64,000 bases of DNA from a virus (IMGVR_UViG_3300025602_000002:102718-166717); one strand, 5' to 3'. Counted from the first letter of the stretch, positions 2,673-43,505 are shown. Numbers and translations: made by a program. Notes: generated by a model from the sequence alone, not told the origin.

Positions 2673-2676
2673 ATTG

Positions 2677-2752
2677 TGGCCGGGACAGGGCTCGAACCTG
2701 TAGCTGACAGGGATTTAGAGTCCCCCGCTCTATCCAATTGAGCTACCCAGCC
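2677..2752 (-). tRNA. Amber suppressor tRNA (anticodon CTA); amino-acid identity undetermined
   Basis: GGCTGGG TA GCTC AATTGGATA GAGC G GGGGA-CTCTAAA-TCCCT GTCAGCT ACAGG-TTCGAGC-CCTGT CCCGGCC A. Positions 34-36 of the 7-nt loop are CTA, with U33 and A37 present. The acceptor stem pairs with one G-U. Confidence 0.7.
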
Positions 2753-6916: not shown

Positions 6917-7300
6917 TTAATTCTCAAAATCAAATAAGAATTCTACATTATCTACTTCAATTAATTCTTTTAGTCTATTACAAATGATTTTTTCCCAGAT
7001 ACCGTACTTATTAGCCAACCCGCTTCCTAGTTTTGATATGAGGAATATGTTATCATGTTTGACTTGTATCATAGCTGTTAACATATCAAATTCGTTTTCA
7101 AAAACTGTTTTGTATTCTTCCGGATGGTAGTATGAGCTATCTTTATAATTAGGATACTTTTTTGTAATAAACCCAAGGACATTAGGGAGGTCTCTAAGCT
7201 CTGAAGCACCTTTTTTACCTTTTCGTAATAAATTATCTCCAAACACAAAAATGTGTGTGGGATTTTCTATTAGATATTCTTCTGTAATTATTCTTTCCAT
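6917..7300 (-). CDS. Hypothetical protein
   Basis: ORF of 127 aa immediately downstream of the NAD cluster. Confidence 0.4.
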   Translation of the reverse strand: MERIITEEYLIENPTHIFVFGDNLLRKGKKGASELRDLPNVLGFITKKYPNYKDSSYYHPEEYKTVFENEFDMLTAMIQVKHDNIFLISKLGSGLANKYGIWEKIICNRLKELIEVDNVEFLFDFEN

Positions 7301-7303: not shown

Positions 7304-7840
7304 TTATTCTTTATATAGTTGATGTCCTATAATATAGCCAAAGATACTTCCGTCGAGTAATCTTCCAGCCAACTCATACTCAGCTTTACAAATGTGTTCT
7401 CTAACTTTACCGCTACTTGCGTGAGTATACTCTGAAATCTTTCCTAAATCAATCGACTCTATAGCTGCGCATTTTTTAATTTCATCAATATCCTGCCACT
7501 TATGAACTTCTAACCCAGTATCATCATCGCCTACATAAATTACAATATTCACATTATAATACATAATCTGTATATGATTAATTAAACTCATCATATACGT
7601 ATGGTTATAATGTAATATAAAGTTATTTGGGAAAGCTTTAGCACACATTGCTACTTTGTCGTTGTAATCGCTTTGAAGAGGTTGTTCTATTTTAAAGGGA
7701 TTAAATGACGGGCAAATAAGTAATAAATCTGAACTAGGGTATTCGGAGTTATATATTTTATTATTTAAGTATTCAACAGCTGCCATATGTCCCAAGTGAG
7801 GAGGATCAAATGACCCCCCGTATATGTGAATTGTTCTCAT
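7304..7840 (-). CDS. Nicotinamide/nicotinate mononucleotide adenylyltransferase
   Basis: N-terminal motif IYGGSFDPPHLGHM, the (H/T)xGH motif of this family. Confidence 0.75.
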   Translation of the reverse strand: MRTIHIYGGSFDPPHLGHMAAVEYLNNKIYNSEYPSSDLLLICPSFNPFKIEQPLQSDYNDKVAMCAKAFPNNFILHYNHTYMMSLINHIQIMYYNVNIVIYVGDDDTGLEVHKWQDIDEIKKCAAIESIDLGKISEYTHASSGKVREHICKAEYELAGRLLDGSIFGYIIGHQLYKE

Positions 7841-8433
7841 TATTTCATCCTTATATATTCGTAATTTGGAGATTCCATAAAAGATAATCCTGCTGCAAAT
7901 GACAGAAGTCTGCTTGAGATTTCTACTTTTTTTGCTTTTTCAGAGGCTATGAAACTAAGTAAATTATAACCATTAATTAAGATTATTTGGTCTATATCTT
8001 CAAAGTCTCCTAACGACTGTTGCTCTGGTAAGTAACTTCCTAAAGCTCCCATTACTAAATGAGTTGCTTCATCTGACATTCCTGCGGTATTGATGGCTGC
8101 AGGAAATACTCTACAAGCCCCGTCTACTTCATATCCAGTTTCCTCCAACAATTCTCTACGCATAGCGTCTTCTGGAGTTTCTCCCTCTTCTATCATACCT
8201 GCTGGAAATGACCAAATGTAGTTATCTAACGCAGGTCTCCACTCCTTAATTAGTAAGAATCTTCCAGAGCGGTCATGAAATACTCCCGCTACAGACTTTT
8301 GGTTTCCAATTCTTCTAACTATTTCCCAATCAGTAGTTTCTCCAGCTTCATTTTCTAGATTTAATGTTTCAGCTATTACATGTTGGGGCTCTATTAAAGC
8401 GTCTGATACAAATTTAATCTTAATTTTTGGCAT
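7840..8433 (-). CDS. Nudix hydrolase, possibly ADP-ribose pyrophosphatase
   Basis: Nudix box GMIEEGETPEDAMRRELLEETG. Confidence 0.75.
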   Translation of the reverse strand: MPKIKIKFVSDALIEPQHVIAETLNLENEAGETTDWEIVRRIGNQKSVAGVFHDRSGRFLLIKEWRPALDNYIWSFPAGMIEEGETPEDAMRRELLEETGYEVDGACRVFPAAINTAGMSDEATHLVMGALGSYLPEQQSLGDFEDIDQIILINGYNLLSFIASEKAKKVEISSRLLSFAAGLSFMESPNYEYIRMK

Positions 8434-9224
8434 TAGGCTATGTCCCTTAAAAAGCTTGGAATATTATCGCGTTTATGACGGCTATTGTTTATCATACTTT
8501 CGATATTATTCATAACTTCTACAGAAACCGGAGATGGTACATTTTCACAGTCCATAGTACTCCACCAAATCAAATAAGAATCTAGTTCTTGGTATGTAAA
8601 TCCAAATTCTTGTTCATCAGTTTGTCCTTCCCATAATCCCGCAGAAGCTACCGCATTTGCATATTCGTTAGGTAGCTCTAATTCTCTAGCTATTTCTCTA
8701 ACTTCAAATTTGTAAAACTCTAACAATGGTTCAAAATCTACTCCACCGTCTCCATATTTAGTAAAGTACCCTATTTCGTATTCAGACTTGTTAGTTGTTC
8801 CTATTACGAGGTTATTGGTACTATTTGCTAGCAGGTACAGTGCAGACATGCGGGCCCGGGCTTTCATATTCCCTTTTGTGAGGGTAGTTATTGCCTCTGT
8901 TTGGATATAAGTCATACCCTCTATCATGGCGTCTACAGAAGTGGTAATATCTATACAATTAAGGTTTAATTGGAGATGTTTTGCAAGAGCTAGTATATTA
9001 TCAGCTCCATGAAATAAATTAGATATTGAGGGAATAACTGTTTCATGGTAAGGCAGCCACACCGCCATAACCTTCTCTGGCCCTAAAGCTCTTTGAGCTA
9101 AAGCCGCAATTACTGCGGAGTCTACTCCTCCAGATAATCCTATGACTACCCCATCAGCACCTGCATCTTCTACTGTTCTTTTTATAAAATCTTGTAAGTC
9201 AATTATGTCTTGTCTAAGTTTCAT
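8433..9224 (-). CDS. nadE: NH3-dependent NAD+ synthetase
   Basis: PP-loop motif GLSGGVDSAV; length typical for NadE. Confidence 0.8.
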   Translation of the reverse strand: MKLRQDIIDLQDFIKRTVEDAGADGVVIGLSGGVDSAVIAALAQRALGPEKVMAVWLPYHETVIPSISNLFHGADNILALAKHLQLNLNCIDITTSVDAMIEGMTYIQTEAITTLTKGNMKARARMSALYLLANSTNNLVIGTTNKSEYEIGYFTKYGDGGVDFEPLLEFYKFEVREIARELELPNEYANAVASAGLWEGQTDEQEFGFTYQELDSYLIWWSTMDCENVPSPVSVEVMNNIESMINNSRHKRDNIPSFLRDIA

Positions 9225-9241: not shown

Positions 9242-9640
9242 TTAAGCAAAGCAGTTGTTTAATATGGTAACCGCCCTGTGTATGTTGTTATCTATGTAAG
9301 CTATTCCTCCTGCAGCATTTACTAACTCTACAGTAGCTTTTAAACTTTTGAGCTGTCCTTTATCAAATCCATCAGGCCTAACGTGCAATATAGTTCGTTT
9401 GCCGTGGGTGTGTGCGCTATTTACAACTTCTGCTATGGAAAATACTCCTTGCATTTCTTTAGAAATAAGATAAAAATGTACATTACATTTATTGTCTTTT
9501 TCATCCATTTCTATTGCTTGGCACGCCTCTGTCCAGTCTTCCACATCTGGATTAAAGTAGTCTATAGTTAGTTGAGGAATTATTTGATTCCTCCAGGTTG
9601 TATGTGCGCAAGTGCCTCCTAAAAATACTCTGTTTATCAC
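9242..9640 (-). CDS. Hypothetical protein, possibly nucleoside 2-deoxyribosyltransferase-like fold
   Basis: 132 aa with an N-terminal MINRVFLGGT Rossmann-like start. Weak. Confidence 0.3.
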   Translation of the reverse strand: MINRVFLGGTCAHTTWRNQIIPQLTIDYFNPDVEDWTEACQAIEMDEKDNKCNVHFYLISKEMQGVFSIAEVVNSAHTHGKRTILHVRPDGFDKGQLKSLKATVELVNAAGGIAYIDNNIHRAVTILNNCFA

Positions 9641-10210: not shown

Positions 10211-10282
10211 TGGCGAAAGATGGAATCGAACCACCGTCGCGTGGATCTTCAATCCACCGCTCTACCCCTGAGCTACCCCGCC
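10211..10282 (-). tRNA. tRNA-Phe(GAA)
   Basis: Anticodon stem GTGGA/TCCAC with loop TTGAAGA, T-loop TTCGATT. The acceptor stem has three G-U pairs. The 5' end overlaps the stop of CDS 10273..10776. Confidence 0.55.
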
Positions 10283-10776
10283 GGAGTATTTAATAATTTA
10301 ATTGCTTGTTCTACATGCTCATCTTGTAGACCTAAATCTGTTTTTGTTTGTACTAGTCGATCCATTAAATGCTCCATGTCTGAGTCATCGTCCAAAATTA
10401 TGAAGGAATCGGCTCTTTCGTGGTAATGTTCTTTAGAGAACTCAGGATCTGCGTCGTATTCGGCATTATGCTCATCAAGCCATTGTTGAATTTCTATGCC
10501 TCTTCTTTTATGTAGTCTTGGGGTACTCTTCCCTATTACGAAGGGTAAATTGAATCCCAAGGCAGCAAATAGATGTCTAAACATAAATGAATCACCATGA
10601 AGTCTCCAAGTTGAGGATACTACTATTTGTGCTCCAGTTGCGTCAATTATTTGCTTTAAGCGTTCTACTAGCGTTATGTCTGGAAGCCATACATTTCCTA
10701 ACTTTTCTTCATGTCGTTTATGTACCGACTCACGATTATTGAGTACGCCGTCGATATCTAAAAATATTACTTTCAA
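10273..10776 (-). CDS. HAD-superfamily phosphatase
   Basis: Motif I (V)IFLDIDGVLN. A TTG start is likely. The TAG stop lies within the 5' end of tRNA-Phe. Confidence 0.5.
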   Translation of the reverse strand: MKVIFLDIDGVLNNRESVHKRHEEKLGNVWLPDITLVERLKQIIDATGAQIVVSSTWRLHGDSFMFRHLFAALGFNLPFVIGKSTPRLHKRRGIEIQQWLDEHNAEYDADPEFSKEHYHERADSFIILDDDSDMEHLMDRLVQTKTDLGLQDEHVEQAIKLLNTPAG

Positions 10777-11363: not shown

Positions 11364-12509
11364 TTAAACCTTTAATATTTGTTTACATAACGCAATCTCG
11401 TCTGGATCGCCTGTATGTTTTCCCGGGGAATCTGACAACTTAATAGCTGGTTCCCATACATCATTTAATTTAACAGCGTTAATTTTGATTACCATATTCA
11501 ATGGTGTAACGTCTGTATCATTAGTGAAGTTGGTACCAATTCCGTAAGCCGTTTTAATGTGCTTATTCACTTCTTTTTCGATGTGTACCGCTTTTTCGAG
11601 ATTTAAACTGTCTGAAAAGATTATTAATTTACTTTTCGGATCAATGTTTAAATGCTCATAGTGGTTAATAATTTTGTTAGCAAACACAAGCGGGTCCCCA
11701 CTGTCTTGCCTCACACCGTCAAATAGTTTAGAATACTTCATGGCAAATTCTTTAAGAAAAACGTCTGTAGTAAAGGTATCTGGTAAAGCTGTTCCCAGAC
11801 TTCCTTGAAACACTTCTACCCATTTCTCTAATACCATAGTAGTTGCCATCTTGTAACCGTATAGGCGTGATAAGACCATATATACTTCGTGAGCTTGTGT
11901 ACCTGTTGGGGTTAAATTATATTTTTTGGCAAAATGAACATTAGAGGTTCCTACCAATCCATGCTTTAAAATATTAAGAGTTTTATCATGTACGTCATAA
12001 GAGTGCCTTCGTCTAGTTCCGAAGTCGGCTACGCTTAAATGATTATCGTGTATAATTCTCAATTTTTCTATATTCTGTTTTTCTAACTCATACAGCGGGC
12101 TTAATTCCCCATTAGACATCTCTGAAATAATAGCCATAATAGGTACTTCCCACAGTATAGTCCTATACCAGGGACCTCTAATACATATCTCAAATTGATG
12201 TTGTTTACCGGGTTCATAAATTACTTCTACTTCAGAAGAGTCATACGCATACCCTTTTAAAAAGTCCCTATACACGGGAGTGAAATAATAACATTTCTTT
12301 TTTAAAAAAGTTGCTTCTGAATCAGTTAACCGTAGTGATCCCATTGCGTTAATATTGCTTATCAATTTTGTAGCAAACGAGTCACTAAACTCAACTGGAG
12401 TTCTCAATATCCACTTGTATTCTACTTCCAGGTTTGGAAATTGCTGACAAACAAACATTTGTTGTGTAAATTTATATATGTCGTTATCTAAAATTGAATT
12501 AATTAACAT
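11364..12509 (-). CDS. nadV: Nicotinamide phosphoribosyltransferase (NAMPT/NadV-like)
   Basis: 381 aa, consistent with NadV homologs (call from family-level resemblance, no specific motif cited). Part of the NAD salvage cluster. Confidence 0.8.
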   Translation of the reverse strand: MLINSILDNDIYKFTQQMFVCQQFPNLEVEYKWILRTPVEFSDSFATKLISNINAMGSLRLTDSEATFLKKKCYYFTPVYRDFLKGYAYDSSEVEVIYEPGKQHQFEICIRGPWYRTILWEVPIMAIISEMSNGELSPLYELEKQNIEKLRIIHDNHLSVADFGTRRRHSYDVHDKTLNILKHGLVGTSNVHFAKKYNLTPTGTQAHEVYMVLSRLYGYKMATTMVLEKWVEVFQGSLGTALPDTFTTDVFLKEFAMKYSKLFDGVRQDSGDPLVFANKIINHYEHLNIDPKSKLIIFSDSLNLEKAVHIEKEVNKHIKTAYGIGTNFTNDTDVTPLNMVIKINAVKLNDVWEPAIKLSDSPGKHTGDPDEIALCKQILKV

Positions 12510-12940: not shown

Positions 12941-13276
12941 TTAATAAACCTTCTCGAGTATTTCCCAACGTGCCTCGGGAATATTAATTACTTGAACTAT
13001 TTCGCCATTGACAAAAAAAGTTAGTTTGTTGTCACCTATTGACACACGATCCGCTAAGTATTCTTTGTCATATTTAATATTATAAGCTTTGTCATAAACT
13101 GTAAGAGTATAGGTAGTTCTAGAATCATTTCCATAACCTAATTCTGTTTTCGTACCATTCGCATCTATAACACCAGAATTAAAAAGCTTTGGTATTGCCA
13201 CTGAGCCTATAATCCCTGCAATTACTAGAACAATAATTAGTTCTATTATTGTAAATCCTTTTTTACTTCCATTCAT
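12941..13276 (-). CDS. Type IV pilin-like (prepilin N-terminus) protein
   Basis: N-terminus MNGSKKGFTIIELIIVLVIAGIIGSVAIP matches the class III signal (G|FTLIE). Confidence 0.4.
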   Translation of the reverse strand: MNGSKKGFTIIELIIVLVIAGIIGSVAIPKLFNSGVIDANGTKTELGYGNDSRTTYTLTVYDKAYNIKYDKEYLADRVSIGDNKLTFFVNGEIVQVINIPEARWEILEKVY

Positions 13277-13724
13277 TTTCTTTTAGTTCCTTTCTTACTT
13301 TCATTAATGCTTTTCCTAAAAGGTTTGTACCTTTACCATTTTTTCCGATGCCCCATATTGCGTCGTTCCATTCAGCCGCGTCTTCTATTAATTCTGCATC
13401 TTGTGTACATAGTAAAATCTTTTTGTAAAGATCTATTTTGAATTTTTCTCTTAAGCACATAACCATAATGTCATATTTTACTTCTTCCCAATCTGGGCGA
13501 AGATTTACTTTATTACCCGCACGTTTAGATTTGCCAGGGGTTTTTAACTGTGCTATTTCTTTACGTATTGTGTTATTAAATGTTTTATGTGCTTGAAACG
13601 CATGCTCTACTGTTGGATATTCAATACCTTCTATAGTAATAGGGGAATGTGCAAAATTAGAAAAATATTGATCATAGCCTGATGGCTTCTTTGCGGAGAA
13701 AATTATTTGGTTTGTGTTTTTCAT
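13263..13724 (-). CDS. NADAR-domain (YbiA-like) protein
   Basis: Motif FSNFAHSPITIEGIEYPTVEHAFQAHKT resembles the NADAR/DUF1768 core. Confidence 0.45.
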   Translation of the reverse strand: MKNTNQIIFSAKKPSGYDQYFSNFAHSPITIEGIEYPTVEHAFQAHKTFNNTIRKEIAQLKTPGKSKRAGNKVNLRPDWEEVKYDIMVMCLREKFKIDLYKKILLCTQDAELIEDAAEWNDAIWGIGKNGKGTNLLGKALMKVRKELKENEWK

Positions 13725-13845: not shown

Positions 13846-14553
13846 TTATCGTTCTCTTCCATGGTAGTCGTTCGGATATAAATCTTCTGATAAGTCTGAT
13901 TGCCAGTACTCATGCGTATTTACATCCATGATAGTAAGTTTTCCTTCCCAACCTGATCCGGTGTCTAACATCCATAGATTGGAAATATTTAAAGGTTTAT
14001 CCGTTCCAAACATTCCTGTAGTTGTATGCCCAACGAATACCTCTTTATAATCTTTAAATTCACGCTTTTGAGTTACGTAAATTTTTGCCACTTCAATGAT
14101 GTGACGATTCCAATACAAATTATACGGATCCTGATCCCGGATAGGGACCTTTTGATCGAATCCTCCGTGTACGTAGATTTTGTTCTCATCATCGATGTGG
14201 TAAAATACTGTTTTGTTACGTAGATAATGTAGGTGCTTAGTTCTCCATTCTAGTGGGGCTGACACGTAGCTGGCAATTGTAGCCATACCACCTTGTCTAG
14301 TCCACAATGAGGGAGTTTGTCCATATTCTAACCACCCAAGTAGCCATACGTCGTGATTACCTATAACCTATATTAAATTCTTAATCTTTAAAAGTTCTTC
14401 GAAACACTTTGCCGTATCTGGCCACCCGTCATTTATATCGCCAAGAAAGACTAATGTATCCTCCTCATAATTGAAGTTAGAACGTTCGAAACATTGGAGC
14501 ATGCCCTGGTAATTACCATGTACGTCTCCCAGTACAAATATTTTATTTTTCAT
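13846..14553 (-). CDS. Calcineurin-like Ser/Thr phosphatase (PPP family) interrupted by one in-frame TAG at 14368-14370
   Basis: Track ORFs 14368..14553 and 13846..14307 share a frame. The translation reads ...GDVHGN...GDINDGW...KIKNLI-TAG-VIGNHDVWLLGWLEYG...HGGF. The PPP phosphoesterase motifs continue straight across the stop. Confidence 0.6.
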
Positions 14554-15825: not shown

Positions 15826-15834
15826 ATAAATTAG

Positions 15835-15906
15835 AGCCTAGGGAAGGAGTTGAACCTCCATTTCTCTTAGCGGACTAAGAGCGTCTTACCATTAGACGAC
15901 CACGGC
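15835..15906 (-). tRNA. tRNA-like element with an 18-nt anticodon arm (possible 8-nt anticodon loop)
   Basis: D-arm CGTC-TAATGGTAA-GACG and T-arm GGAGG-TTCAACT-CCTTC. The anticodon arm CTCTT-AGTCCGCT-AAGAG is one nt longer than canonical. The acceptor stem has two central mismatches. Confidence 0.35.
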
Positions 15907-17098: not shown

Positions 17099-17776
17099 TT
17101 ACCAAGAAACTTTTCTTATTTTTAATAGAAAATCATTTACTAATTTTGAGTTAGCTTCTTTTTTTGTAGACTTATTAAACGCGTCTTCTAGTTTTTCTTC
17201 CCAAGAGCTACAAGTTTTTATAACCTCTGGTATAGTAGATTCGCCTTCCTTATATTTTCTGCAAAGAATGCCTACTTCTGTATCAGCTATTCTGGCTGTA
17301 AAATCGCCAGTTTGTAATAGTTCGTATCCATTATATAACATTCTTAACCAGGCCGCTGATGATTTTCTTTTTCTAATGGTATCTAATTCTACATTTCCAT
17401 TACTAAGGGCTTCATCATTTTCTAAAAGCTTTTTGCGTTGCGATTGAGCATAACCCCTGTACGAGTGGAAAACTAATTTAGAACTCCAAACGTCTGGAAA
17501 TAGACTTCTTAACTCTTCACACCAGTTCTCGTTTTCTGTAGTAAATGTCGCTTTAAAAGTTTCCAGAATTGTAGGATTACTTCTTAATGCGAAATGTAGA
17601 AATCTAGCTAATTCCCAGGTATCTGCTGGATCCTTTGGATCGCTGGGCTGGTGCTCTGGTAAAGCTAAAATATTTGAAGTAGTCTCAATAAATACAGTTT
17701 TATAATCGAAATCACTTATAGGAGTATCTAACCCATGCAATCTACTTCCTACTAACGCTCTCATTAATAATCTCAT
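17099..17776 (-). CDS. Pol-beta-superfamily nucleotidyltransferase
   Basis: GS-x-D-x-D motif GSRLHGLDTPISDFDY near the N-terminus. Confidence 0.45.
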   Translation of the reverse strand: MRLLMRALVGSRLHGLDTPISDFDYKTVFIETTSNILALPEHQPSDPKDPADTWELARFLHFALRSNPTILETFKATFTTENENWCEELRSLFPDVWSSKLVFHSYRGYAQSQRKKLLENDEALSNGNVELDTIRKRKSSAAWLRMLYNGYELLQTGDFTARIADTEVGILCRKYKEGESTIPEVIKTCSSWEEKLEDAFNKSTKKEANSKLVNDFLLKIRKVSW

Positions 17777-17804: not shown

Positions 17805-17836
17805 AAAAAAAAGACCCAGCGAGTGATCGCCGGGCC
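17805..17836 (-). terminator. Rho-independent terminator
   Basis: Hairpin CCCGGCGA-TCAC-TCGCTGGG followed on the minus strand by an 8-T run. Confidence 0.5.
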
Positions 17837-17901
17837 TAATTTCAAAGATATAAAGCGGTTAAGCTTTATAATGTCTTTTATTGACGATCTACATAGAAGC
17901 G

Positions 17902-18288
17902 CTAGCCTTCGCTAACTGTGAACTCCTGTGGAGTGAATTTCCCTTTTACAGGTATGGCGATGGTTAAAACACCACGAACTAGCGAACTAGTTAATTTTCC
18001 ATAATTAAAATGTTCACCGTTCTGTAATGGAAATTCGTTATAGAAACCTTTACAGAAAGTTCCTTTACCAATCTCTTTATCCGGTCCAGCTGTCACTAAC
18101 AGGCGGTCATGAGTTGAAGGCGAATTGCCGAACGCAGTTCCAGCCTTAGCTATTCTAATTTTAATGTTAGAAGCCTGATAACCTGGTACTAATAGCTCAA
18201 CCATTACGTTTGGCTCGTTCCAGTACAGTACGAAGTCTACTGCATCATATTTTTTATCGTCACTTAATTTTGAGTATAAATTGCTCAT
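17902..18288 (-). CDS. Hypothetical protein
   Basis: 128 aa, TAG stop. Confidence 0.4.
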   Translation of the reverse strand: MSNLYSKLSDDKKYDAVDFVLYWNEPNVMVELLVPGYQASNIKIRIAKAGTAFGNSPSTHDRLLVTAGPDKEIGKGTFCKGFYNEFPLQNGEHFNYGKLTSSLVRGVLTIAIPVKGKFTPQEFTVSEG

Positions 18289-18300: not shown

Positions 18301-19992
18301 TTATTTCATTTTTAGTTGATACATCCGATTCATTTCATAGAACCGAACAATATTGCCCTCGTGGGCCAGTGTCATCGACGACTTGATGGCAGAGTCTTTG
18401 TAGACCTGCACATCACTTGAAGCCTTAGCGCGAAACATTTCTAAAGCGCCATCTTCATGTATACTTATAGTTAATCCGTTAGGTAGGCAGATAAAATTCA
18501 ACATATTATCTGCGTCCTTCAAGATTCTTATATCATATTTTTTGAAATTTTCATCGAATACGATAATAAATTTATCATACTTGCTGCCTGATTGTCCTAT
18601 TATCATACAAACCCTGTCTCGGCATTTTGCATCAATTATCTTGTACTTATCTAGTTCAGGAATTGCTACAATTGCACATTTGTTGGGTGCGTATGGTAAA
18701 TATAAATGAGTTTTACCTAAAATACTAGAACATAATACTCCATCTAACATTTCTGTAGAATTATTGAATATTTCCCAAGTATTTAAAATATAAAACGTAG
18801 GCTTTGAGCCGGTATCTAATACATCTATTTCAAAAAATCTATCCTTGTTTACGCCATATAGCCTATTTTCGTATATCATAGTTTTTTCAACCTTAATATT
18901 TGTACTATGATAAGGAGATTGGCTATCTTCCAATGATCTGTATACTAAAGATTCATCCTTAGTTTTCACAAGAAACGTCTTTTGAGACATACTGTGTGAA
19001 AAAACCTTGGAGGTGGTATCTTTAATATAACTATTATTGTTATATATGACAACATCTTTTTTGGTATATATTATATACTGTCTACCAAAATAAGTGCAGT
19101 CAATTATGTCGCCAGGATAATCGTTTAATTGTTGTATTGTAAAATATTTGCTTCCGGTGTGTGTTGTTATTATAGGAGTTATTGGAAGTATAATGTACTG
19201 CCCTTTCATGTCTGGAGGAGTACTTCTATAACCATTTTCAAATACTTCTTTAAACCAATCATAATAACTCTTAGGTATATTTGTAAAGTCCCTTACTGCG
19301 CCCGGAACACGCGTTTCAGGGTTAAAGATTGATACGTTTGCTCTCATACGTTCTTCTAATGTAGCTCGTTTAAAGTGAGAATTCTTTCCCTTATATGGGT
19401 GAATTCCTATAAACAGTTGACAAGCTATTACAGCGAAGGAAAACCAATCTGAAATTTCTGTGAATTCTGTAGCATGCCAATCTCTAATAGAGGGCATAAT
19501 TACTGTAGCTGGATAATTAGGAGTTTGCCATGAGTTTACATCTATACAATAAGCAGTAGTATGCTTTCTAGTTTCTATTAAATAATTTAATTCGTTACCA
19601 TCGACCATTATTATGTCATGATCGTGCACATGACTAATTGTATCCTTAATATTTGTAACTAATTTAGTAACGGTATCGTTATTTAAATTGTTTCTATTAA
19701 GATACGCAGATGTAAACATTCTTGGTAATGGAATAGACTGAGGTACAGTCTGCATCATAAATCCTATTAACGTGTTTTTTGTAGTGTAAATTAAATTCTC
19801 AGGTTTTATAATGGTATTCTTAGTAAGAACTGACAGTTCCCTAATTTTTTCTTCAGGTATCATAGTTTTTGGGTCATGAAATATTTTATAAGCTCTTCCA
19901 CCTTTTACATATACTTTACCCTCTCCACCTTGAGCTACAAAATTAGAGTCTAATAATGATACTTGCCCCTTTCCTTGTACTAAAACCTTCAT
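18301..19992 (-). CDS. Ser/Thr protein kinase-like protein
   Basis: Glycine-rich loop with an invariant Lys (AQGGEGKVYVKGGRAYKIF) and a catalytic-loop-like segment HDIIMVDGNELN. Confidence 0.5.
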   Translation of the reverse strand: MKVLVQGKGQVSLLDSNFVAQGGEGKVYVKGGRAYKIFHDPKTMIPEEKIRELSVLTKNTIIKPENLIYTTKNTLIGFMMQTVPQSIPLPRMFTSAYLNRNNLNNDTVTKLVTNIKDTISHVHDHDIIMVDGNELNYLIETRKHTTAYCIDVNSWQTPNYPATVIMPSIRDWHATEFTEISDWFSFAVIACQLFIGIHPYKGKNSHFKRATLEERMRANVSIFNPETRVPGAVRDFTNIPKSYYDWFKEVFENGYRSTPPDMKGQYIILPITPIITTHTGSKYFTIQQLNDYPGDIIDCTYFGRQYIIYTKKDVVIYNNNSYIKDTTSKVFSHSMSQKTFLVKTKDESLVYRSLEDSQSPYHSTNIKVEKTMIYENRLYGVNKDRFFEIDVLDTGSKPTFYILNTWEIFNNSTEMLDGVLCSSILGKTHLYLPYAPNKCAIVAIPELDKYKIIDAKCRDRVCMIIGQSGSKYDKFIIVFDENFKKYDIRILKDADNMLNFICLPNGLTISIHEDGALEMFRAKASSDVQVYKDSAIKSSMTLAHEGNIVRFYEMNRMYQLKMK

Positions 19993-20768
19993 AATATTAT
20001 TCCAGCAATTCCAATATCGTCTGCGTTAGTAATATAATTTCTATTCCAGGTTTTCTTAAGAAACCTTAGTTTTCTTACAGCGAATGCTCCTGCGGCACTT
20101 GGGAAATGAGTGATGATATCATCAATCACTACTCTCTCTCCAGTATCCCTATCTATTACTTGGTCTATACCATCAGTAGTTAAAATTACCGAAGCTATCG
20201 GGTAATCAGGCTGAAATATAAAGGGCATTCCAGTTTCTAATGCTACATTGGTAGGATCCTCGTCACCATCATTCATGTGAACAACTGTTTGTCCTTTGTC
20301 CTTTAAACACTCTTTGTATTCTTCCTGATCTTTTCGAGTAATGTTATACGCAGGATAGTATGGAGTATTATGAGGTGATTGAATATCTATATGAAGCGGT
20401 CCTTCTTTTGAATCTAAGAAACAATGTCCATCTCCGGCCATAAGAATATAAAAGCTTTGTTTTTCTTTATTATAGATAGCTACCAACACAGTTGACAGCA
20501 GCATACGGCGGTCCAGGCCTTGGACATCAGTATAACCTTTACATAATTGAAGTTGCCACTCTAATTTTTGACGAGTCAGCTCTCCAAATTCTCTAATGGC
20601 TTGTTCTACACTATGGGCTATTAATCTAGCTCCAAAATCTGTGTGAGGAGCGCTTGAACACCCATCACATACAATAATATAAGCTATCTCATCTGTTTCC
20701 CCATGAAGTGTATAATCTTCACAAACCCGATGAGTGGCCCCTTGAATAAAATGTGAATCTATGTTCAT
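19989..20768 (-). CDS. PP2C-family Ser/Thr phosphatase-like protein
   Basis: GATHRVCEDY...IVCDGCSS...DDIGIAGIIL resemble PP2C motifs. The TGA stop overlaps the kinase ATG. Confidence 0.45.
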   Translation of the reverse strand: MNIDSHFIQGATHRVCEDYTLHGETDEIAYIIVCDGCSSAPHTDFGARLIAHSVEQAIREFGELTRQKLEWQLQLCKGYTDVQGLDRRMLLSTVLVAIYNKEKQSFYILMAGDGHCFLDSKEGPLHIDIQSPHNTPYYPAYNITRKDQEEYKECLKDKGQTVVHMNDGDEDPTNVALETGMPFIFQPDYPIASVILTTDGIDQVIDRDTGERVVIDDIITHFPSAAGAFAVRKLRFLKKTWNRNYITNADDIGIAGIIL

Positions 20769-20797
20769 AGTTTTCCTTTTAATAAGAACGAACGTAA

Positions 20798-20865
20798 CAG
20801 CGCGGATTGGATTCGAACCAATGTCTAGGGTATCCCCTAACTCTACCCTGCTGAGATACCGCCCC
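20798..20865 (-). tRNA. Short tRNA-like element (about 68 nt) with a tetraloop central arm
   Basis: T-arm ATTGG-TTCGAAT-CCAAT and a 6-of-7 acceptor stem. The central arm is TAGGG-GATA-CCCTA. Confidence 0.25.
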
Positions 20866-20896
20866 GTTACGCCGTTTCTTACGTACGTTTTGTAAG

Positions 20897-21661
20897 TTAG
20901 AATTTCATACTAGCTTGAGCAGAAGGTCCGCCAGTGCCAAGTGAATGGCTCTGTGAACTAATGCTTTGGCTAATGAAATTCCCTAATTTTGCAAGAGTTT
21001 TAGCATTTGCATTGCCCGCATCAATATATTGCGTGAGGTCTGCATCATCTTTAAACTCTTTTAATAGTTGTGAAACCCTAGAGCCCCAACCATGGTTGCC
21101 GTCTGTGCCTATCCCGATTAATACGGAAATTAAAGATTCAATTGATTCTTCGGCACGTTTAATGGAGTGTATTCTGTCCTTTACATTAGTGGCTGTCATA
21201 GTCGAAGAATTATCATCTCCGTCTGTAATAACATACACGGCAGCATTTACACTGTATTCCTGGTCCGCTAGGGATTTACCATACTGTTCAATTGATCCGA
21301 TCATATCATAAGTGGCATCAAACAGGTTAGTAGCTGCGTCAGGTACTAATTTCCCTGAATACTCACTTAAATCTATATCGTTTACAGGCTTAAATCCATG
21401 GATTTCCAAAATATCAGTCTGACTATTAAACAGTGTTACCCTAACAAGTAGATTTTCAGAACGTGCAGACATTTTACATGCCCCCACTATTTCTTCAATC
21501 ATCTTTTGTAACATAGTTTCATAACCGCCCACTGATCCGGTAATGTCAACGACTATACCTACTAAGGTATATTCGGAGGCTTCTAGTTCATCTAAGCCTA
21601 TTGCTGAAAACTTAAAATTTCCAGCTCCTAATAAGTCCACACTTTGCATGGTATCTACCAT
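20897..21661 (-). CDS. von Willebrand factor A (vWA) domain protein
   Basis: MIDAS motif DITGSVGG in the N-terminal region. Confidence 0.55.
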   Translation of the reverse strand: MVDTMQSVDLLGAGNFKFSAIGLDELEASEYTLVGIVVDITGSVGGYETMLQKMIEEIVGACKMSARSENLLVRVTLFNSQTDILEIHGFKPVNDIDLSEYSGKLVPDAATNLFDATYDMIGSIEQYGKSLADQEYSVNAAVYVITDGDDNSSTMTATNVKDRIHSIKRAEESIESLISVLIGIGTDGNHGWGSRVSQLLKEFKDDADLTQYIDAGNANAKTLAKLGNFISQSISSQSHSLGTGGPSAQASMKF

Positions 21662-21691: not shown

Positions 21692-22555
21692 TTATTTCAA
21701 AAAGTCTTCAGCTTTACAGATCTGCATACCGCGTGAAACCATTTCCGTTACAAAGTCGGTACCCAATTTCTCAAACCCAGTAACATTTGAAGAAGTGTCT
21801 TCAAGCAGTACTAGTTTTTTGATATTCTCTTCTCCGAAGTTGTCTGCAATATCTTTAACTGTATTAGCTACACAGTGTGATAGAGCCTGACCTGAAAGGG
21901 CAATTATGTCTGCGTCTTTTAAAAGTTTTAAAAGAGTGACGTTTAACTGCGTAGTAGGATCTTCATCGTCAGGTACATCAGCAATAACGCCAGAGTAATG
22001 TTCTGTCCAAGGGTTGTGTCCTTTTGTAACATAGTTTATTCTGCGTTTTCTGCTTTCTTCCCAGGCTTCAAGTTCTGCGTTTACAACATCTACTACATTG
22101 TGGCCCCATGTGCCCACTTTACAATGTGGTGGCCATATACACAGAAGGTATCTGTCGTTGTCTTGGAGAGCTTGCAGGTAAGCTCTGGCTCTTGGAATTC
22201 GATCTGGGCTAGTCGGTGTCCAAACTGATCCGTTTAAGTCGTCTAGACTTATAAGTGTAAACGGGCCCGGATGTTCTCCAGCACTATTCATCCAAAATAA
22301 TGGATGCGAAATATCCAACAATTGGTGGGTATCTAGCGTCACGTGGATCCCAGTAATTTTACCTCTTAAGCGGTTAAGCACCATAGCTAACCTCTCAGAG
22401 TCCTCATAAGCCCCCGGTACCGGTAATTCTGGTTCTGGAAGTCGTAATCCTATATCCGCCAAATTTATGCCGGCTTTTTGAAGTAAGACTAAATCATTGT
22501 TTCGATCCATAAAAGAGTTTTGTGGATCAATTATTAAGAAGTGCAATTTTTGCAT
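21692..22555 (-). CDS. Isochorismatase-family hydrolase, possibly a nicotinamidase
   Basis: N-terminal LIIDPQNSF and a catalytic-Cys context ALSHCVANTV. Confidence 0.45.
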   Translation of the reverse strand: MQKLHFLIIDPQNSFMDRNNDLVLLQKAGINLADIGLRLPEPELPVPGAYEDSERLAMVLNRLRGKITGIHVTLDTHQLLDISHPLFWMNSAGEHPGPFTLISLDDLNGSVWTPTSPDRIPRARAYLQALQDNDRYLLCIWPPHCKVGTWGHNVVDVVNAELEAWEESRKRRINYVTKGHNPWTEHYSGVIADVPDDEDPTTQLNVTLLKLLKDADIIALSGQALSHCVANTVKDIADNFGEENIKKLVLLEDTSSNVTGFEKLGTDFVTEMVSRGMQICKAEDFLK

Positions 22556-22609: not shown

Positions 22610-23524
22610 TTAGAAGTTTCCGTAGTTTACTTGGAAACATTGTAGACCTAAGTCTTTACGCCATAGACCAACTACTTGGTCTCTATCATCAAACACGCAA
22701 AATACGTTGTATTTATCTTTAACGTGTTCATCATAAAGTTTGCGTTTAAGAATTGAATCTCTTATATTATGCTCAAACAATGGTCTCATGAACATCTTCC
22801 AATGAGGAAACGGAAGGTTTGCTTTCAAAAACTGTCTAGTTTCTGAAAGGTATTTTTCCGATCTTCCAGATAAAAAGATTATTTGGTATCCCTGTTTGTC
22901 CATAACGTGAAGAATTTCCCCCAAAATCGCATTGTAAGTATCGTTCTCACAAGTAGAGGCGTCATAAGGGTTACGGCCTTTAAGGAATGCCATCGTGCCG
23001 TCTAAGTCACAAATGATTGCCTTAGGTAAGCCGTCTACCAACTCAACCGTGCCTGGAGGCTCAGGATAGTCGTGAGGCTCATCTTTCTTTAGAAACCTAC
23101 TGTACATATCATAAATAACTTTAGAGCCTACATGGGCCGATCCTGTACGTAATGCGTCTCGATCAATGGCATCAAATACATCTGTAGGGAATTCTCTAAC
23201 CACAACTAATACGTCGTGCTTAACTTCCCGTAAAATGTTATAGTCCGCCACTATTTTTCTAATATGCTCCTCATTTGAGCTGTGTAAGTTTGTATCATCT
23301 ACGAATACTGATCTTCCGGCATCTAAGTATCTAAAGATTAAAGAGTCTCTAATTGCTTTAATTATTTTCTCATTTCCTTTAGAGTATACTCCACCATCAA
23401 CCATGCTTCGTAGACTATCCCTATTTACACGTTTGTATGTATCTGGCATTTTATCCATCATATCTACGGCATACGAAGTCTTACCGCTTGCGGGTAACCC
23501 CCGTAGTATTATTACTTGTCTCAT
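22610..23524 (-). CDS. pseT: Polynucleotide 5'-kinase / 3'-phosphatase (T4 Pnk-like)
   Basis: Walker A GLPASGKTSYA and a C-terminal HAD motif IICDLDGTM. Confidence 0.8.
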   Translation of the reverse strand: MRQVIILRGLPASGKTSYAVDMMDKMPDTYKRVNRDSLRSMVDGGVYSKGNEKIIKAIRDSLIFRYLDAGRSVFVDDTNLHSSNEEHIRKIVADYNILREVKHDVLVVVREFPTDVFDAIDRDALRTGSAHVGSKVIYDMYSRFLKKDEPHDYPEPPGTVELVDGLPKAIICDLDGTMAFLKGRNPYDASTCENDTYNAILGEILHVMDKQGYQIIFLSGRSEKYLSETRQFLKANLPFPHWKMFMRPLFEHNIRDSILKRKLYDEHVKDKYNVFCVFDDRDQVVGLWRKDLGLQCFQVNYGNF

Positions 23525-23932: not shown

Positions 23933-24997
23933 TTATTCTCCAAACTTAATTAAGAAGTCAGGGTTAATTACTTTAAAACTAAAGCTACCATCTCTCGCTC
24001 TAATCACAATTCCCTCTCTTGGGATATCAGGATTTAGAAGGCTTGGGCCTTTAGAAAGCTCTACTAATTCGTCTACTGTATGGTTTAACACCATCTTTGG
24101 ATTAAGGACAGGTACAGTATTAAATATTCTATCTAACCCTCGTACGCGAACTTCCCCCTCAGTTGTGTAGTCCCCAAATATAAGATTTAGAAAGCTCTCA
24201 ATACTTCCAAAGCCACCATCTTGTATAGTAAAAGCGTTAAACATTTTTACTTCTGTAGCAGACAATTTGTATTTATTTTTCTGAATCCCTGGCCCCAGTA
24301 ATTCTCCTTGGAAAATTACATTTATACCAAGTTTAGACATTTTCTCTTCTGCGTCAATATCTCTAGCGACTTTCCAGAAAGAATTTTTGTCATTCTCTAT
24401 TAGGTCAAGCTTCCGACTGCATACTCCGAAAGGTGTTGCTTTTCGGTAGTTAGGTGCATAATAAAAGGTAGATGACGATCCATCTAATTTCTCTGTTATG
24501 TAGCACTCTGTTCCTGCCCATTCTTTTATTTCATCTACAAGATTCTGTACACGTTCTTCATCCGTCTTAGGAATCCAGGAAGGTCTGTGGCCTTTAATCT
24601 GGCCACTTAAGCATGCTGGAATGGGTGCTTCATATTTTACTACTTTCAAAAGTTCACTTACGTCTGTTCCCACTTCGGGGCCATCGGCGAGCTCTTCGAA
24701 AGTATCTAATGGCATGGCTAGCCCTTGACTAATTTGCTTACGCAATTTTATAGTTCGTAAGCGATAACCTCTTGTGCCGTCATCTATTGTTTTGACACCG
24801 TTTTTCTTTAAGAATTCAAACGGCTCTATTTCTGGCAACAAAGAGTCCACTTCAAAGTAGACGCATTTATCACCTATTTGAAATTCCCCCTTCTTAACTA
24901 CTAGATGCCAGCCTTTTACAGTTGCTTTTTCAATTACATCTGCTCCAGAGATAGGCTCTAAATTAGCTATGAGTTGGATTGTTGCTAAATGTCTCAT
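23933..24997 (-). CDS. ATP-dependent RNA ligase
   Basis: Nucleotidyltransferase motif I ITEKLDGSS (KxDG); 354 aa; sits next to the Pnk gene. Confidence 0.65.
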   Translation of the reverse strand: MRHLATIQLIANLEPISGADVIEKATVKGWHLVVKKGEFQIGDKCVYFEVDSLLPEIEPFEFLKKNGVKTIDDGTRGYRLRTIKLRKQISQGLAMPLDTFEELADGPEVGTDVSELLKVVKYEAPIPACLSGQIKGHRPSWIPKTDEERVQNLVDEIKEWAGTECYITEKLDGSSSTFYYAPNYRKATPFGVCSRKLDLIENDKNSFWKVARDIDAEEKMSKLGINVIFQGELLGPGIQKNKYKLSATEVKMFNAFTIQDGGFGSIESFLNLIFGDYTTEGEVRVRGLDRIFNTVPVLNPKMVLNHTVDELVELSKGPSLLNPDIPREGIVIRARDGSFSFKVINPDFLIKFGE

Positions 24998-25520: not shown

Positions 25521-25701
25521 TTGCAGCTATACCGCCTACAGCTAAAAATAATAAGACGAAGCCAAGCCACAGCGGGGCAGTTATCCACCACCAACTCCAT
25601 GTAATGACTCCAACTAACTTTAGGACAAGTAATACTATAAATAGTATGAATCCGGGATTTTTCATTTTTTCTCCGTTTGTTTTGGTTTTAAATATTTCCA
25701 A
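25501..25701 (-). CDS. Small membrane protein
   Basis: Two transmembrane helices, TAG stop. Confidence 0.35.
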   Translation of the reverse strand: MEIFKTKTNGEKMKNPGFILFIVLLVLKLVGVITWSWWWITAPLWLGFVLLFLAVGGIAAIASWLD

Positions 25702-26735
25702 ATTAAGGGCTTTATGTTTTTCCCTTGTAACATTGTAAATACTAAAGAAATTATTTGTTTATTTCCAATATTTATGACTTTTTCTGCTACTGCTTTGGAA
25801 GTTCGTTTTTTCATATCAATTGATTCTGGGAAACTAGTTATAAGGTGCATGTATTGTTTACAAGCAGTGTTTGCTAATATCACATAATTCTCTCTAAAGT
25901 TATCTATAGAGGTATGAAGCCATTTATAGTATTCATCTGGTACAATATCAATTAACTCTTGTATATCTAATTCTGGATCTGATAAGTATTTCCATACCGT
26001 TTTATCATTGCAAAGCTGCAATATACGGTGATGTCTTACATACCAGTCAAATTTTACTTTAACTCTGAACCCGTTATCATATGCTAACACAAATCCTTCT
26101 TTGTTTTCTTGATTTGGTACATTATATAACTCACTTACATCGCAATCATGTTCATATAGCTCTGTTCTTGGTATACAAGTAGTAACAGCGTGCAACCCTA
26201 TCTCTCTGCCAGTAAACGTATCGCGTACTGCCAATAGCCTTAGGTCGCTCTCTGGGTAGGTGATACAGGTCATCCCCCCTTTCTTAAGAGTAGGTGTTAA
26301 GAACTCATAGCAGTATGTGAAGTCCTCCCTTATAGTAAGGTCAGGGTATTTTTCTTCTAAGACTACATTGGCCTCTGTAATATATTCATTATCAAAAGAG
26401 CCTCTTGTAGATTTAATTAAATGCCCCCTCCACATAACCATTATAAATAGACATCCGTCTAGTTTATTAAAAATGCTGTAGTGGTCATCTGGGAGCTCGA
26501 TACCTAGTCCTTCTAATTCTGTATAGTTGAAAAATTTTCTAAAAGGGTTGGCTACTACAGTTCCATATTCATCTAGTATAAGACCCCTACATCTAGTAGT
26601 GGTATCGTTCCAATTTCGAGCATACTGTGTGGCATGGGTATAATTATATATCCAAAGTGGAAACTCTGGATGTTTTCTTCGCTTTACCCACCCTTCCTTT
26701 ATTTGGGTTTCTAAAACTGTTAGGACTGTATTCAT
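25662..26735 (-). CDS. Second RNA ligase (Rnl2-like family)
   Basis: KxDG motif FNKLDGCLFIM; 357 aa. Confidence 0.5.
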   Translation of the reverse strand: MNTVLTVLETQIKEGWVKRRKHPEFPLWIYNYTHATQYARNWNDTTTRCRGLILDEYGTVVANPFRKFFNYTELEGLGIELPDDHYSIFNKLDGCLFIMVMWRGHLIKSTRGSFDNEYITEANVVLEEKYPDLTIREDFTYCYEFLTPTLKKGGMTCITYPESDLRLLAVRDTFTGREIGLHAVTTCIPRTELYEHDCDVSELYNVPNQENKEGFVLAYDNGFRVKVKFDWYVRHHRILQLCNDKTVWKYLSDPELDIQELIDIVPDEYYKWLHTSIDNFRENYVILANTACKQYMHLITSFPESIDMKKRTSKAVAEKVINIGNKQIISLVFTMLQGKNIKPLIWKYLKPKQTEKK

Positions 26736-37049: not shown

Positions 37050-37769
37050 TTAATTATTTTCTATTAAATATACATGTTTTTCAATGTAATCTTTACCCCT
37101 AGCTGAGGCAAACACTGGGATATTCATATCTGGGTGGTTATTGTCTATACAGTACCCTTGTCGTCTTAAACTAGAGAAGTCATCAAAATTAATTCCTATC
37201 TTTTTGGATAGAAGATGTTTTATATTCTCAACACTTCTCATGTGAAGTTCTTTCTGAGAGAAATGCTCTCTTCCTACCATCTGGACAGCGTTGCGTATAG
37301 CATCTTGTTGTCTCCAGATATAATAGTTTGTCACTTCATCTTTTGCCAAATTAAAAGCTCTAGCATCAAACTGCACTTTTTCGCCAGTTATTGAATAAAA
37401 GTTAGTGCTTACGATAGCTGCTGTAATTGATACTATTTTCTGTATGGAATTATTGAACCACGACTGTGTGTTATGAGTTTTATAATCCGTTAATAAAAAA
37501 CTGATCTCATCAGATTGACCATAGCAAAACTTTGTTGACTGCATATCTTCCATAGAAGCCCTAGCAGTTTCCATCATATTTGCAGAGAATCCGGTAGACC
37601 ATCCTCTTCCATATAATTTTCTTGTAAGAGTGTGAAACGCTCTACCGTCTACTCTTATTATTACTGGCATTCTTTTGTGAAGCTTGTATTTATAGGTAGC
37701 TTCATAATCTTTCATACGATCACCTAGTGGGGTTCCGTCTCCCATATTATTTAGTCTCCTCTTTTTCAT
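37050..37769 (-). CDS. tRNA-His guanylyltransferase (Thg1)-like protein
   Basis: Thg1 signature motifs IIRVDGRAFH, YGQSDEISF and WRQQDAIRNA. Confidence 0.8.
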   Translation of the reverse strand: MKKRRLNNMGDGTPLGDRMKDYEATYKYKLHKRMPVIIRVDGRAFHTLTRKLYGRGWSTGFSANMMETARASMEDMQSTKFCYGQSDEISFLLTDYKTHNTQSWFNNSIQKIVSITAAIVSTNFYSITGEKVQFDARAFNLAKDEVTNYYIWRQQDAIRNAVQMVGREHFSQKELHMRSVENIKHLLSKKIGINFDDFSSLRRQGYCIDNNHPDMNIPVFASARGKDYIEKHVYLIENN

Positions 37770-40897: not shown

Positions 40898-40978
40898 ATT
40901 TGTGTTTCCTTTAATATGTTAAGTTAGTGTGTTGAATTAATATTGTTTATTATTCTGAAAGTATAATTTACTATATGT

Positions 40979-41575
40979 TTAAGTAAAGAGAGAAGGGGTT
41001 ACCTCATATCCTTGTGATGGCTTGTTTAATGGTCCATCTTCTGGATAAGTGCAAGATACATCAGCTGGCTTTGGAGGAGCCAAGGTGCCATCTTTGTCAA
41101 CAACAAAATTTAAGTCTATATATTCAATTGATTGTCTCATTTGTATGCTTACATTTATAGAATCTATTTGTTCTATCATATTTTTATCTAATGTTGTACT
41201 TAGATTTCTACGAATTTCATTACTTACAGCTTTGAGTACATCTGGGTTTTTTGGATACATTGGATGTGGAGGTACTATCTTTTGTAGACTCCATAGCGGG
41301 TATAGATAGTTACTAGCGTAGTCAATTGCTTCGTACTCCTCAGTATCTACGGTATCTTTTAATATAATACTATATTTTGGATGCATCTTAAGAGATATAC
41401 CGCTATATTCTAATTTGTTTACGATAAATACATGACCTATTGCTGGGTGCATATAGTATTCCCAGGAATATGGGTTCCCTGCAAAGTGGCGTGATGTTCG
41501 GTGAGTAACTAGTACTACATCACCGGTTTTTAAATAGGAGTTATATAATGAAGTATATTCGGACGTGTGTGTCAT
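40979..41575 (-). CDS. Paralog family A' member
   Basis: Track ORF 40979..41806 trimmed to the internal Met (MTHTSEY...) because the N-terminal 77 residues are a low-complexity read-through of the iteron region. Confidence 0.4.
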   Translation of the reverse strand: MTHTSEYTSLYNSYLKTGDVVLVTHRTSRHFAGNPYSWEYYMHPAIGHVFIVNKLEYSGISLKMHPKYSIILKDTVDTEEYEAIDYASNYLYPLWSLQKIVPPHPMYPKNPDVLKAVSNEIRRNLSTTLDKNMIEQIDSINVSIQMRQSIEYIDLNFVVDKDGTLAPPKPADVSCTYPEDGPLNKPSQGYEVTPSLFT

Positions 41576-43504: not shown

Positions 43505-43505
43505 G

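Follow-up and report, generated by a model that had tools for sequence, protein, structure and literature searches.

We analysed a stretch of 64,000 nucleotides of DNA from a virus (IMGVR_UViG_3300025602_000002:102718-166717), referred to here as the window, in which three consecutive genes on the minus strand occupy positions 18301 to 21661. In the direction of transcription, they encode a vWA protein of 254 amino acids (aa; 20897-21661, stop TAA), a PP2C-type phosphatase of 259 aa (19989-20768, stop TGA) and a Ser/Thr kinase of 563 aa (18301-19992, stop TAA). A spacer of 128 nt separates the vWA and PP2C genes, and the sequence ATGA is shared by the PP2C stop and the kinase start. A preliminary description had reported this operon-like arrangement, overlap included, and direct reading of the sequence bore it out. 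ARAGORN called 23 tRNA genes in the window, among them an amber suppressor with anticodon CTA (2676-2752, minus strand). None of the three genes contains an in-frame TAG, so the suppressor leaves their reading unchanged and the gene models stand; recoding of TAG as a source of altered gene models was considered and set aside, since all three stops are TAA or TGA, no TAG lies inside the genes and read-through creates no long open reading frames (ORFs).

The kinase scored under the gathering threshold of the Pfam Pkinase model (E=2e-4), and a PHROGs search gave no match for it or for the PP2C. Its AlphaFold2 (AF2) model (pLDDT 89.4, pTM 0.87) comprises a kinase domain at residues 1–265, a disordered linker (268–279) and a C-terminal region (284–562) whose 28 strands, in seven groups of four, are modelled as a seven-bladed β-propeller. 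The best Foldseek match of this model was the half of LRRK2 that carries kinase and WD40 domains (E=1e-10), followed by hundreds of kinases. An alignment of 42 homologues showed invariant positions at G22-G23 in the glycine loop, K36, E52, D131-x-N-E-x-N136, D151, D182-W183 and R256, in agreement with the glycine loop and invariant lysine described previously. On the evidence of the model, the product of 18301-19992 is confirmed as a Hanks-type Ser/Thr kinase with catalytic Lys, Asp and Asn, so that the structural check suggested in the preliminary description came out in favour of a kinase fold.

The phosphatase matched Pfam PP2C_2 (PF13672) above threshold (E=5e-13). A word-index protein search for the PP2C gave 6 homologues, and the family was therefore rebuilt from fetched loci; among 30 relatives, D18, D35-G36, G112-D113-G114, D199-G200 and D250-D251 were invariant, including the metal-binding Asp positions, and the enzyme is predicted to be catalytically competent.

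The vWA protein matched Pfam weakly (PF00092 was matched by 11 of 37 homologues), and PHROGs placed it in families of unknown function only. Its AF2 model (pLDDT 90.2) had integrin I domains as top Foldseek matches (E=5e-9). The metal ion-dependent adhesion site (MIDAS) is intact, with D39-I-T41-G-S43, T111 and D147; D39, S43, T111 and D147 are invariant in the family, and position 41 is S or T. A DxSxS motif had been described for this protein: the vWA fold and the complete MIDAS hold, and the motif is corrected to DxTxS. The C-terminal helix and tail are strongly conserved and rich in serine (S231, S233, S235 and S238, then LGTGGPS; FxSQSISSQS..LGTGGPS). JGI annotates homologues as 'YegL', and the protein appears, from comparison with YegL, to be of the stand-alone TerY/YegL type.

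A conserved four-gene cassette

Directly upstream of the vWA gene lies a fourth gene (21692-22555, minus strand, 287 aa) that encodes a nicotinamidase (PncA)-family cysteine hydrolase. Searched against the PDB, its profile matched nicotinamidases best, with Pnc1 of yeast (2h0r, E=7e-16) ahead of the others. The catalytic triad positions D10, K178 and C228 were invariant in 27 sequences, as were the metal-site positions D75, H77 and H144, the last being part of a 'WPPHC' motif. The protein is thus assigned by its sequence features to the PncA family, with nicotinamide hydrolysis as its predicted activity. Membrane segments were predicted in none of the four proteins, the kinase included, which appears soluble.

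To place the four genes in context, we collected 80 IMG/VR and 80 GTDB genome loci around kinase homologues, which together with loci fetched before gave 167 loci (84 viral and 83 genome), and searched them with profiles for the PncA-like (I), vWA (V), PP2C (P) and kinase (K) genes. All four genes were found in 69 of the 84 viral and 38 of the 83 genome loci; many loci without the full set are contigs that end early. The vWA, PP2C and kinase genes were present together in that order in 75/84 viral and 41/83 genome loci, so that the synteny for which the preliminary description had suggested a search was found in more than 100 relatives. Of the 118 loci with both genes, 98 have the PncA-like gene ahead of the vWA gene at a distance of about 40 nt, and the median gap between I and V is about 40 nt in viral and genome sets alike. 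The kinase, PP2C and vWA genes thus belong to a conserved cassette of four, at whose head stands a nicotinamidase-family gene; the three genes described previously are real, and the unit that they form has four members.

The cassette is carried by closed Capsulimonadaceae chromosomes (L127, L142, L153 and L154) and by many metagenome-assembled genomes (MAGs) of Armatimonadota, Acidobacteriota, Myxococcota and Desulfobacterota. Among the INPHARED genomes, the closest relatives of the kinase belong to three huge uncultured phages of 462–595 kb, in which genes of the triad recur: LR756500 has exactly the order PncA-like, vWA, PP2C, kinase; LR745208 has the same four-gene order with other genes inserted between; and LR756511 has PP2C and kinase only, in the part examined. 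Across 95 loci, the distance matrices of the four proteins correlated pairwise (Pearson 0.66–0.84), which fits inheritance as one unit. Mean identity is low (kinase ~36%, PP2C ~29%), and the PncA-vWA and PP2C-kinase pairs stay together despite insertions and rearrangements.

Two further arrangements of the kinase gene were observed. In Acidobacteriota (Pyrinomonadaceae and relatives), the gene directly after the kinase encodes a protein of ~740 aa whose N-terminal domain is a methyltransferase (MTase), in the order NrtR-PncA-vWA-PP2C-kinase-MTase (L110 8725-10947, L119 8728-10950 and 16 other genome loci); the viral loci lack this protein. Additionally, solitary kinase-propeller genes occur in Thiotrichales (Beggiatoa, Thiomargarita) and some Desulfobacterales (L005, L007, L096-L099, L102, L105, L106, L117), beside housekeeping genes such as those encoding PCMT, TrmO or a response regulator that has an NMT1-like domain, and no vWA, PP2C or PncA gene was found within 7 kb of them.

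NAD+ salvage genes and a candidate role for the cassette

To survey the neighbourhood, every ORF in the loci was assigned to a cluster, and cluster representatives were compared with Pfam. One or more NAD genes occur within 7 kb in 79 of the 84 viral and 56 of the 83 genome loci. A nicotinate phosphoribosyltransferase (NAPRTase, PncB) gene adjoins the cassette or lies inside it in 38 related loci, and in L127, a closed Capsulimonadaceae chromosome, it directly follows the kinase. NrtR with its winged-helix domain was found in 29 loci (24 genome, 5 viral), NAD synthase in 21, NadD-like proteins in 17, NAD-dependent DNA ligase in 9 and NADAR homologues in 10, of which two (L135, L147) have them between vWA and kinase. 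Moreover, NAD genes are interleaved with the triad itself, in the orders I-V-B-E-P-D-K (PncA-vWA-PncB-NadE-PP2C-NadD-kinase), I-V-B-P-K and V-B-E-P-D-K. No Ter or restriction genes were present among the frequent neighbour clusters. In the Armatimonadota loci L135 (4847-5293) and L147 (1719-2201), the NADAR gene stands directly after vWA, in the usual place of PP2C.

The window holds a similar set of genes, all on the minus strand. These encode PncB (11364-12509; NAPRTase E=3e-56, NAPRTase_N E=3e-29), NAD synthetase (NadE, 8433-9224; NAD_synthase E=9e-68), a NadD-like nucleotidyltransferase of the nicotinate/nicotinamide mononucleotide adenylyltransferase family (7304-7840; CTP_transf_like E=1e-8) and a NADAR-domain protein linked to NAD and ADP-ribose (13263-13724; NADAR E=3e-30). 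The NadD assignment relies on a general nucleotidyltransferase model, and the protein also matches the cluster that is sited between PP2C and kinase in other viral loci (E=1e-17). Together with the PncA-like protein, the window is thus predicted to encode every enzyme of the Preiss-Handler route. A Nudix hydrolase with an intact Nudix box (7840-8433; NUDIX E=2e-16) is not NrtR, because it has no winged-helix domain and only its Nudix box aligns with true NrtR. A nucleoside 2-deoxyribosyltransferase-like gene (9242-9640) and a DUF7831 gene (6917-7300), both on the minus strand, flank NadE-Nudix-NadD and may belong to an NAD/nucleotide island. Between the NADAR and PncB genes, a small protein (12941-13276, minus strand) has an N-terminal methylation motif like that of type IV pilins (N_methyl E=8e-7), a feature not expected of a phage.

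The genomic link of the cassette to NAD+ salvage is strong. With a nicotinamidase at its head and NAD+ salvage genes around it, the cassette most likely controls the rebuilding of NAD+ rather than a general rewiring of host signalling. We therefore modestly favour a reading in which it is a variant of the TerY-P/YegL-PphC-YegI-like triads, tied to Preiss-Handler NAD+ salvage, that controls the recycling of nicotinamide. In the mechanism that we infer, PncA would convert nicotinamide to nicotinate, which PncB, NadD and NadE would carry on to NAD+. The kinase and PP2C would set the phosphorylation state of a cassette component, for which the Ser-rich C-terminal helix and tail of the vWA protein is the best candidate, the salvage enzymes themselves being alternative targets. 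The propeller may act as a sensing or docking domain, and the MIDAS site of the vWA protein would bind a partner, for which the PncA-like metalloenzyme encoded next to it is the most likely candidate, so that the four proteins together would switch nicotinamide recycling on and off. In a huge phage, NAD+ could in this way be rebuilt from nicotinamide freed by host NADase defences or by NAD+ consumers of the phage, which would give the cassette a counter-defence role.

The preliminary description had proposed that the triad reprograms host phosphosignalling or counters kinase-based abortive infection. In this explanation, the triad would be a phage tool acting on host proteins, for takeover of the cell or neutralisation of such defences, independently of NAD metabolism. 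Kinase and PP2C retain complete sets of catalytic residues, all four proteins are soluble by prediction, and phage kinases that modify host proteins exist, T7 gp0.7 being an example. However, the same cassette, in the same order, lies in closed bacterial chromosomes and many MAGs, where an anti-host device has no place, so that it cannot be regarded as a phage-specific device for attacking host kinases. A nicotinamidase-family gene constantly accompanies the triad, the recurrent neighbours are genes of NAD salvage, and no model of a defence or anti-defence system matched. The context thus lends the proposal no support and points to NAD salvage instead; we consider an action on host proteins decidedly improbable.

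Several observations weigh against control of nicotinamide recycling. The kinase is found alone beside housekeeping genes in 13 genome loci (Thiotrichales, Desulfobacterales) and can therefore work without the other three genes nearby, and in 26 viral loci with I-V-P-K no additional NAD gene occurs within 7 kb. Operonic coupling is loose in the window, where tRNA and other genes separate PncB, NadD and NadE from the cassette over distances of 6–11 kb. The single PncA-like sequence has no Pfam match (the Isochorismatase model failed), it is about 80 aa longer than characterised nicotinamidases, and its alignment with Pnc1 falls into two stretches separated by an insert of about 45 residues in the PncA-like protein; it may hydrolyse an amide other than nicotinamide. 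The proposed kinase target is conjectural, and the phage nature of the window, discussed below, rests on indirect evidence.

Furthermore, the conserved order among huge phages could in part reflect shared ancestry rather than function. Taken to its end, this would make the cassette a general signalling module that stands beside NAD genes by common descent of huge phages and hitch-hiking, with no functional link between the two. The viral loci are interrelated and their gene order is partly inherited, and both the solitary kinases and the distance of several kilobases to PncB, NadD and NadE in the window would fit such an origin. Against it, at the low identities of kinase and PP2C and in rearranged surroundings, I-V and P-K remain paired and NAD genes are inserted between them; this interleaving makes pure hitch-hiking unlikely. 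The association also holds independently in several bacterial phyla. Control of nicotinamide recycling accounts for the gene order better in our judgement, and we rate the absence of any functional link as unlikely.

Other features of the window and its origin

Within the cassette, the spacer between the vWA and PP2C genes contains a tRNA-like element (20798-20865, minus strand) that scores 37.6 bits with the Rfam tRNA model (gathering threshold 29, E=1e-6) and is not called by ARAGORN. It has 4 nt where the Rfam model has 9, and its predicted fold has a z-score of -3.85. The acceptor, D and T arms are normal and the stem of the first can be extended to 13 bp (GGTTCGAATCC); the anticodon arm consists of a 5-bp stem and a 4-nt loop (GATA), so the element is without an anticodon. 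It could be a decayed tRNA, a processing signal separating the PncA-vWA and PP2C-kinase messages, or a decoy. The element was rejected as a conserved part of the cassette: it is specific to this phage, the cassettes of 60 related viral loci being free of tRNAs. Elsewhere in the window, ARAGORN gave a tRNA of undetermined identity with a two-base 'anticodon' (cc) at 15834-15906 (minus strand).

Among the tRNA genes lies a dense set for RNA repair and tRNA maintenance, comprising a HAD_SAK_2 phosphatase, an RlaP nucleotidyltransferase, a Pnkp kinase-phosphatase, two RNA ligases of different families and Thg1 (10273-10776, 17099-17776, 22610-23524, 23933-24997, 25662-26735 and 37050-37769, all minus strand). 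The triad might serve these genes, for example by regulating the repair of tRNAs cut by host anticodon nucleases. Pnkp, the RNA ligases and RlaP are neighbours of the cassette in the window, the tRNA-like element lies inside it, and near the cassette RtcB occurs in 7 related loci, Thg1 in 9 and the CCA-adding enzyme in 6. Nevertheless, such genes adjoin the cassette far more rarely than NAD genes do and never interleave with it, the 60 other viral loci have no tRNA inside the cassette, and Pnkp, RlaP and an Hsp20-like ORF of the window are without homologues in the 167 loci, except in the same phage. We hence dismissed a functional link to RNA repair, as Pnkp, RlaP and the Hsp20-like gene are not conserved neighbours, and a service to RNA repair is very improbable.

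The Hsp20/alpha-crystallin-like ORF (17902-18288, minus strand, 128 aa) follows the kinase gene, with weak matches (Pfam HSP20 E=0.085, NCBIfam Hsp14 E=0.006). Its only homologue in the 167 loci is in the same phage (L008), and it is outside the conserved cassette. It is the last gene before a terminator-like hairpin (17812-17837, minus strand; 11-bp stem with 7 G-C pairs, T8 tail), which was found in a consensus scan and likely marks the end of the transcription unit; the total of terminator-like sites in the region is not above shuffled expectation.

The preliminary description also named a second, PPP-family phosphatase, and this was substantiated. The calcineurin-like gene at 13846-14553 (minus strand) has one TAG inside, and read-through yields one continuous Metallophos domain (E=6e-11), with the GNHD motif directly after the amber codon. 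Other ORFs of the window are not lengthened by TAG read-through, so recoding looks gene-specific in the window. GC skew is positive at ~40–52 kb (window 40001-52000) and negative elsewhere, and ORFs of at least 200 aa are scarce beyond 45 kb.

The window probably derives from a phage, which its own content leaves short of proof. The 23 tRNA genes with an amber suppressor and the one amber-interrupted gene restored by read-through are consistent with such an origin, and the nearest relatives of all four cassette proteins are in IMG/VR (viral) loci. A vWA protein identical to that of the window (P0121) occurs in 75 sample blocks, many of them marine, on contigs of up to more than 200 kb. Capsid, portal and terminase genes were not found in the 64 kb (PHROGs and Pfam, 20 ORFs), a DNA similarity search against 50,697 phage records gave no match, and an exact 32-mer from the kinase gene did not occur in IMG/VR. 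Against the phage label, one NCBI record places the identical vWA protein in a Candidatus Scalindua MAG; this record is probably a mis-binned phage contig. Contigs L095, L108, L165 and L166, assigned to 'archaeal' and Candidate Phyla Radiation (CPR) MAGs, may be mis-binned likewise.

Comparison with known systems

As the preliminary description had indicated, the three proteins are related to bacterial modules of vWA, PP2C and Ser/Thr kinase. The TerY-P triad consists of a TerY-like vWA protein, a PP2C and a Ser/Thr kinase (Anantharaman, Iyer and Aravind 2012, cited in PMC11090510); it has been proposed to act as a phosphorylation switch and occurs with Ter, restriction and CoCoNuT systems (PMC11090510). 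A form with an OB-fold kinase is reported to be a stand-alone antiphage system (Gao et al. 2020; PMC11090510). The triad of the window agrees in its three domains and their order, in the close, co-directional packing of the genes, in an intact MIDAS and in a PP2C and a kinase that are predicted to be active, and a phosphorylation-dependent switch is proposed for both. In contrast, its kinase ends in a seven-bladed β-propeller by our model, where the Ter and CoCoNuT form has a zinc ribbon and the defence form an OB fold. Moreover, a nicotinamidase-family gene is here a fourth constant member, and the partners are genes of NAD salvage instead of Ter, restriction or CoCoNuT genes.

This kinship raises the question of whether the cassette is a TerY-P-like defence that excludes competing phages, with the PncA-like protein as an effector or helper, for instance by removing the nicotinamide that rivals need for NadV-type salvage. 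Huge phages do carry defence genes. Triads of this kind are reported both as stand-alone antiphage systems and as add-ons of CoCoNuT (PMC11090510), and the PP2C weakly matches the PADLOC candidate PDC-M21C (E=6.5e-4). However, none of the PADLOC models of validated systems matched the three proteins at E<=0.1, in a library whose inclusion of TerY-P models is unconfirmed, and family members matched generic kinase models only, such as mad6 and PD-T4-6. We did not adopt membership in the Gao-type TerY-P defence system, as there was no match to a defence system in PADLOC. The kinase also carries a propeller in place of the OB fold or zinc ribbon of the described defence forms. In addition, the neighbouring PncB, NadD and NadE build NAD+ rather than destroy it, and in Armatimonadota and Acidobacteriota the cassette is common to many MAGs of the same families, with NrtR and PncB adjoining, so that it looks like a housekeeping locus and not like a variable defence island. 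A role in excluding other phages is accordingly quite unlikely, and control of NAD+ salvage remains the reading that we prefer.

A second relative is the yegL-pphC-yegI operon of E. coli, which encodes a vWA protein, the PP2C phosphatase PphC and the Hanks kinase YegI, the latter two being biochemically active (bioRxiv 10.1101/303594, 10.1101/819920). The window kinase matches YegI over the whole kinase domain (BLASTP E=2e-12), with unusual motifs in common. Profiles of the other two proteins align with YegL (hhalign E=2e-4, probability 45%) and PphC (hhalign E=6.7e-5), for which BLASTP gave no match, identities being ~20% or undetectable. The 4-nt overlap (ATGA) of the corresponding genes in the window has a parallel in pphC and yegI of E. 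coli B and pathogenic strains. YegI, at 648 aa, differs in crossing the membrane twice and in having no propeller, compared with the predicted soluble kinase of the window, and no pncA lies next to yegL in E. coli K-12. The operon of Deinococcus radiodurans DRA0331-0334 (vWA, serine/threonine kinase, FHA, PP2C; bioRxiv 10.64898/2026.01.23.701218), likened here by its description, is likewise a signalling operon; it has FHA domains and a link to DNA-damage sensing, and neither a nicotinamidase nor a propeller.

On the side of NAD metabolism, nrtR-pncA-pncB(-nadD-nadE) is the classical operon arrangement (Rodionov et al. 2008, PMC2330246). The enzymes are the same here, and in 29 related loci so are the regulator and the relative order nrtR, pncA ... 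pncB. The classical pncA-pncB has nothing between the two genes, whereas here the vWA, PP2C and kinase genes are inserted; further differences are the additional ~80 aa of the PncA-like protein and the presence in the window of a Nudix hydrolase but no NrtR. vWA domains have been described as Mg2+-dependent peptide-binding partners in NAD and ADP-ribose systems (PMC9503650).

Complete Preiss-Handler clusters have been described before in jumbo phages, with a proposed function in counter-defence (PMC11662467). Phages also reconstitute NAD+ by NARP1 (Adps and Namat), NARP2 (Nampt and Nmnat) and NARP3 (PnuC and NadR) (PMC11662467; bioRxiv 10.1101/2024.02.11.579819; PMC13464706). The window resembles these cases as part of a large phage with a complete NAD+ route, whose presumed purpose is the upkeep of NAD+ during infection, including against NADase defences. 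The enzymes found in the window differ from those of the NARPs in being those of the PncA-PncB-NadD-NadE route, and the papers on NARPs and NAD-encoding jumbo phages mention no kinase, phosphatase or vWA component. In the searchable literature, whose coverage is incomplete, we found no description of a kinase, phosphatase or vWA gene within an NAD salvage cluster, or of a nicotinamidase beside a TerY-P triad.

We tentatively suggest, short of an even chance, that the phospho-switch of vWA protein, PP2C and propeller kinase is a built-in controller of nicotinamide salvage. Breakdown of NAD+ or the stress of infection would be its signal, and PncA-dependent flux to NAD+ what it gates; in huge phages it would form a regulated fourth route of NAD+ reconstitution against NADase immunity. 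If so, the TerY-P-like triads would gain their first defined physiological output, and NAD+ salvage in prokaryotes its first example of Ser/Thr phospho-control. To our knowledge, no substrate or physiological output is known for any TerY-P-type triad, even though such triads have been known since 2012 and YegI and PphC are active. The subfamily described here is tied, in more than 100 loci from huge phages and several bacterial phyla, to a pathway whose product NAD+ is easily measured, and the function of a triad thereby becomes directly testable. It would also add a regulatory layer and the Preiss-Handler route to phage NAD+ reconstitution against NAD+-depleting immunity, which has so far consisted of unregulated two-enzyme pathways. 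If the link were only positional, the window would present one more triad of known type in a known type of NAD-encoding jumbo phage. The NAD+ clusters of jumbo phages, NARP1-3, nrtR-pncA-pncB operons and TerY-P triads are each already known, and it is their association that appears new.

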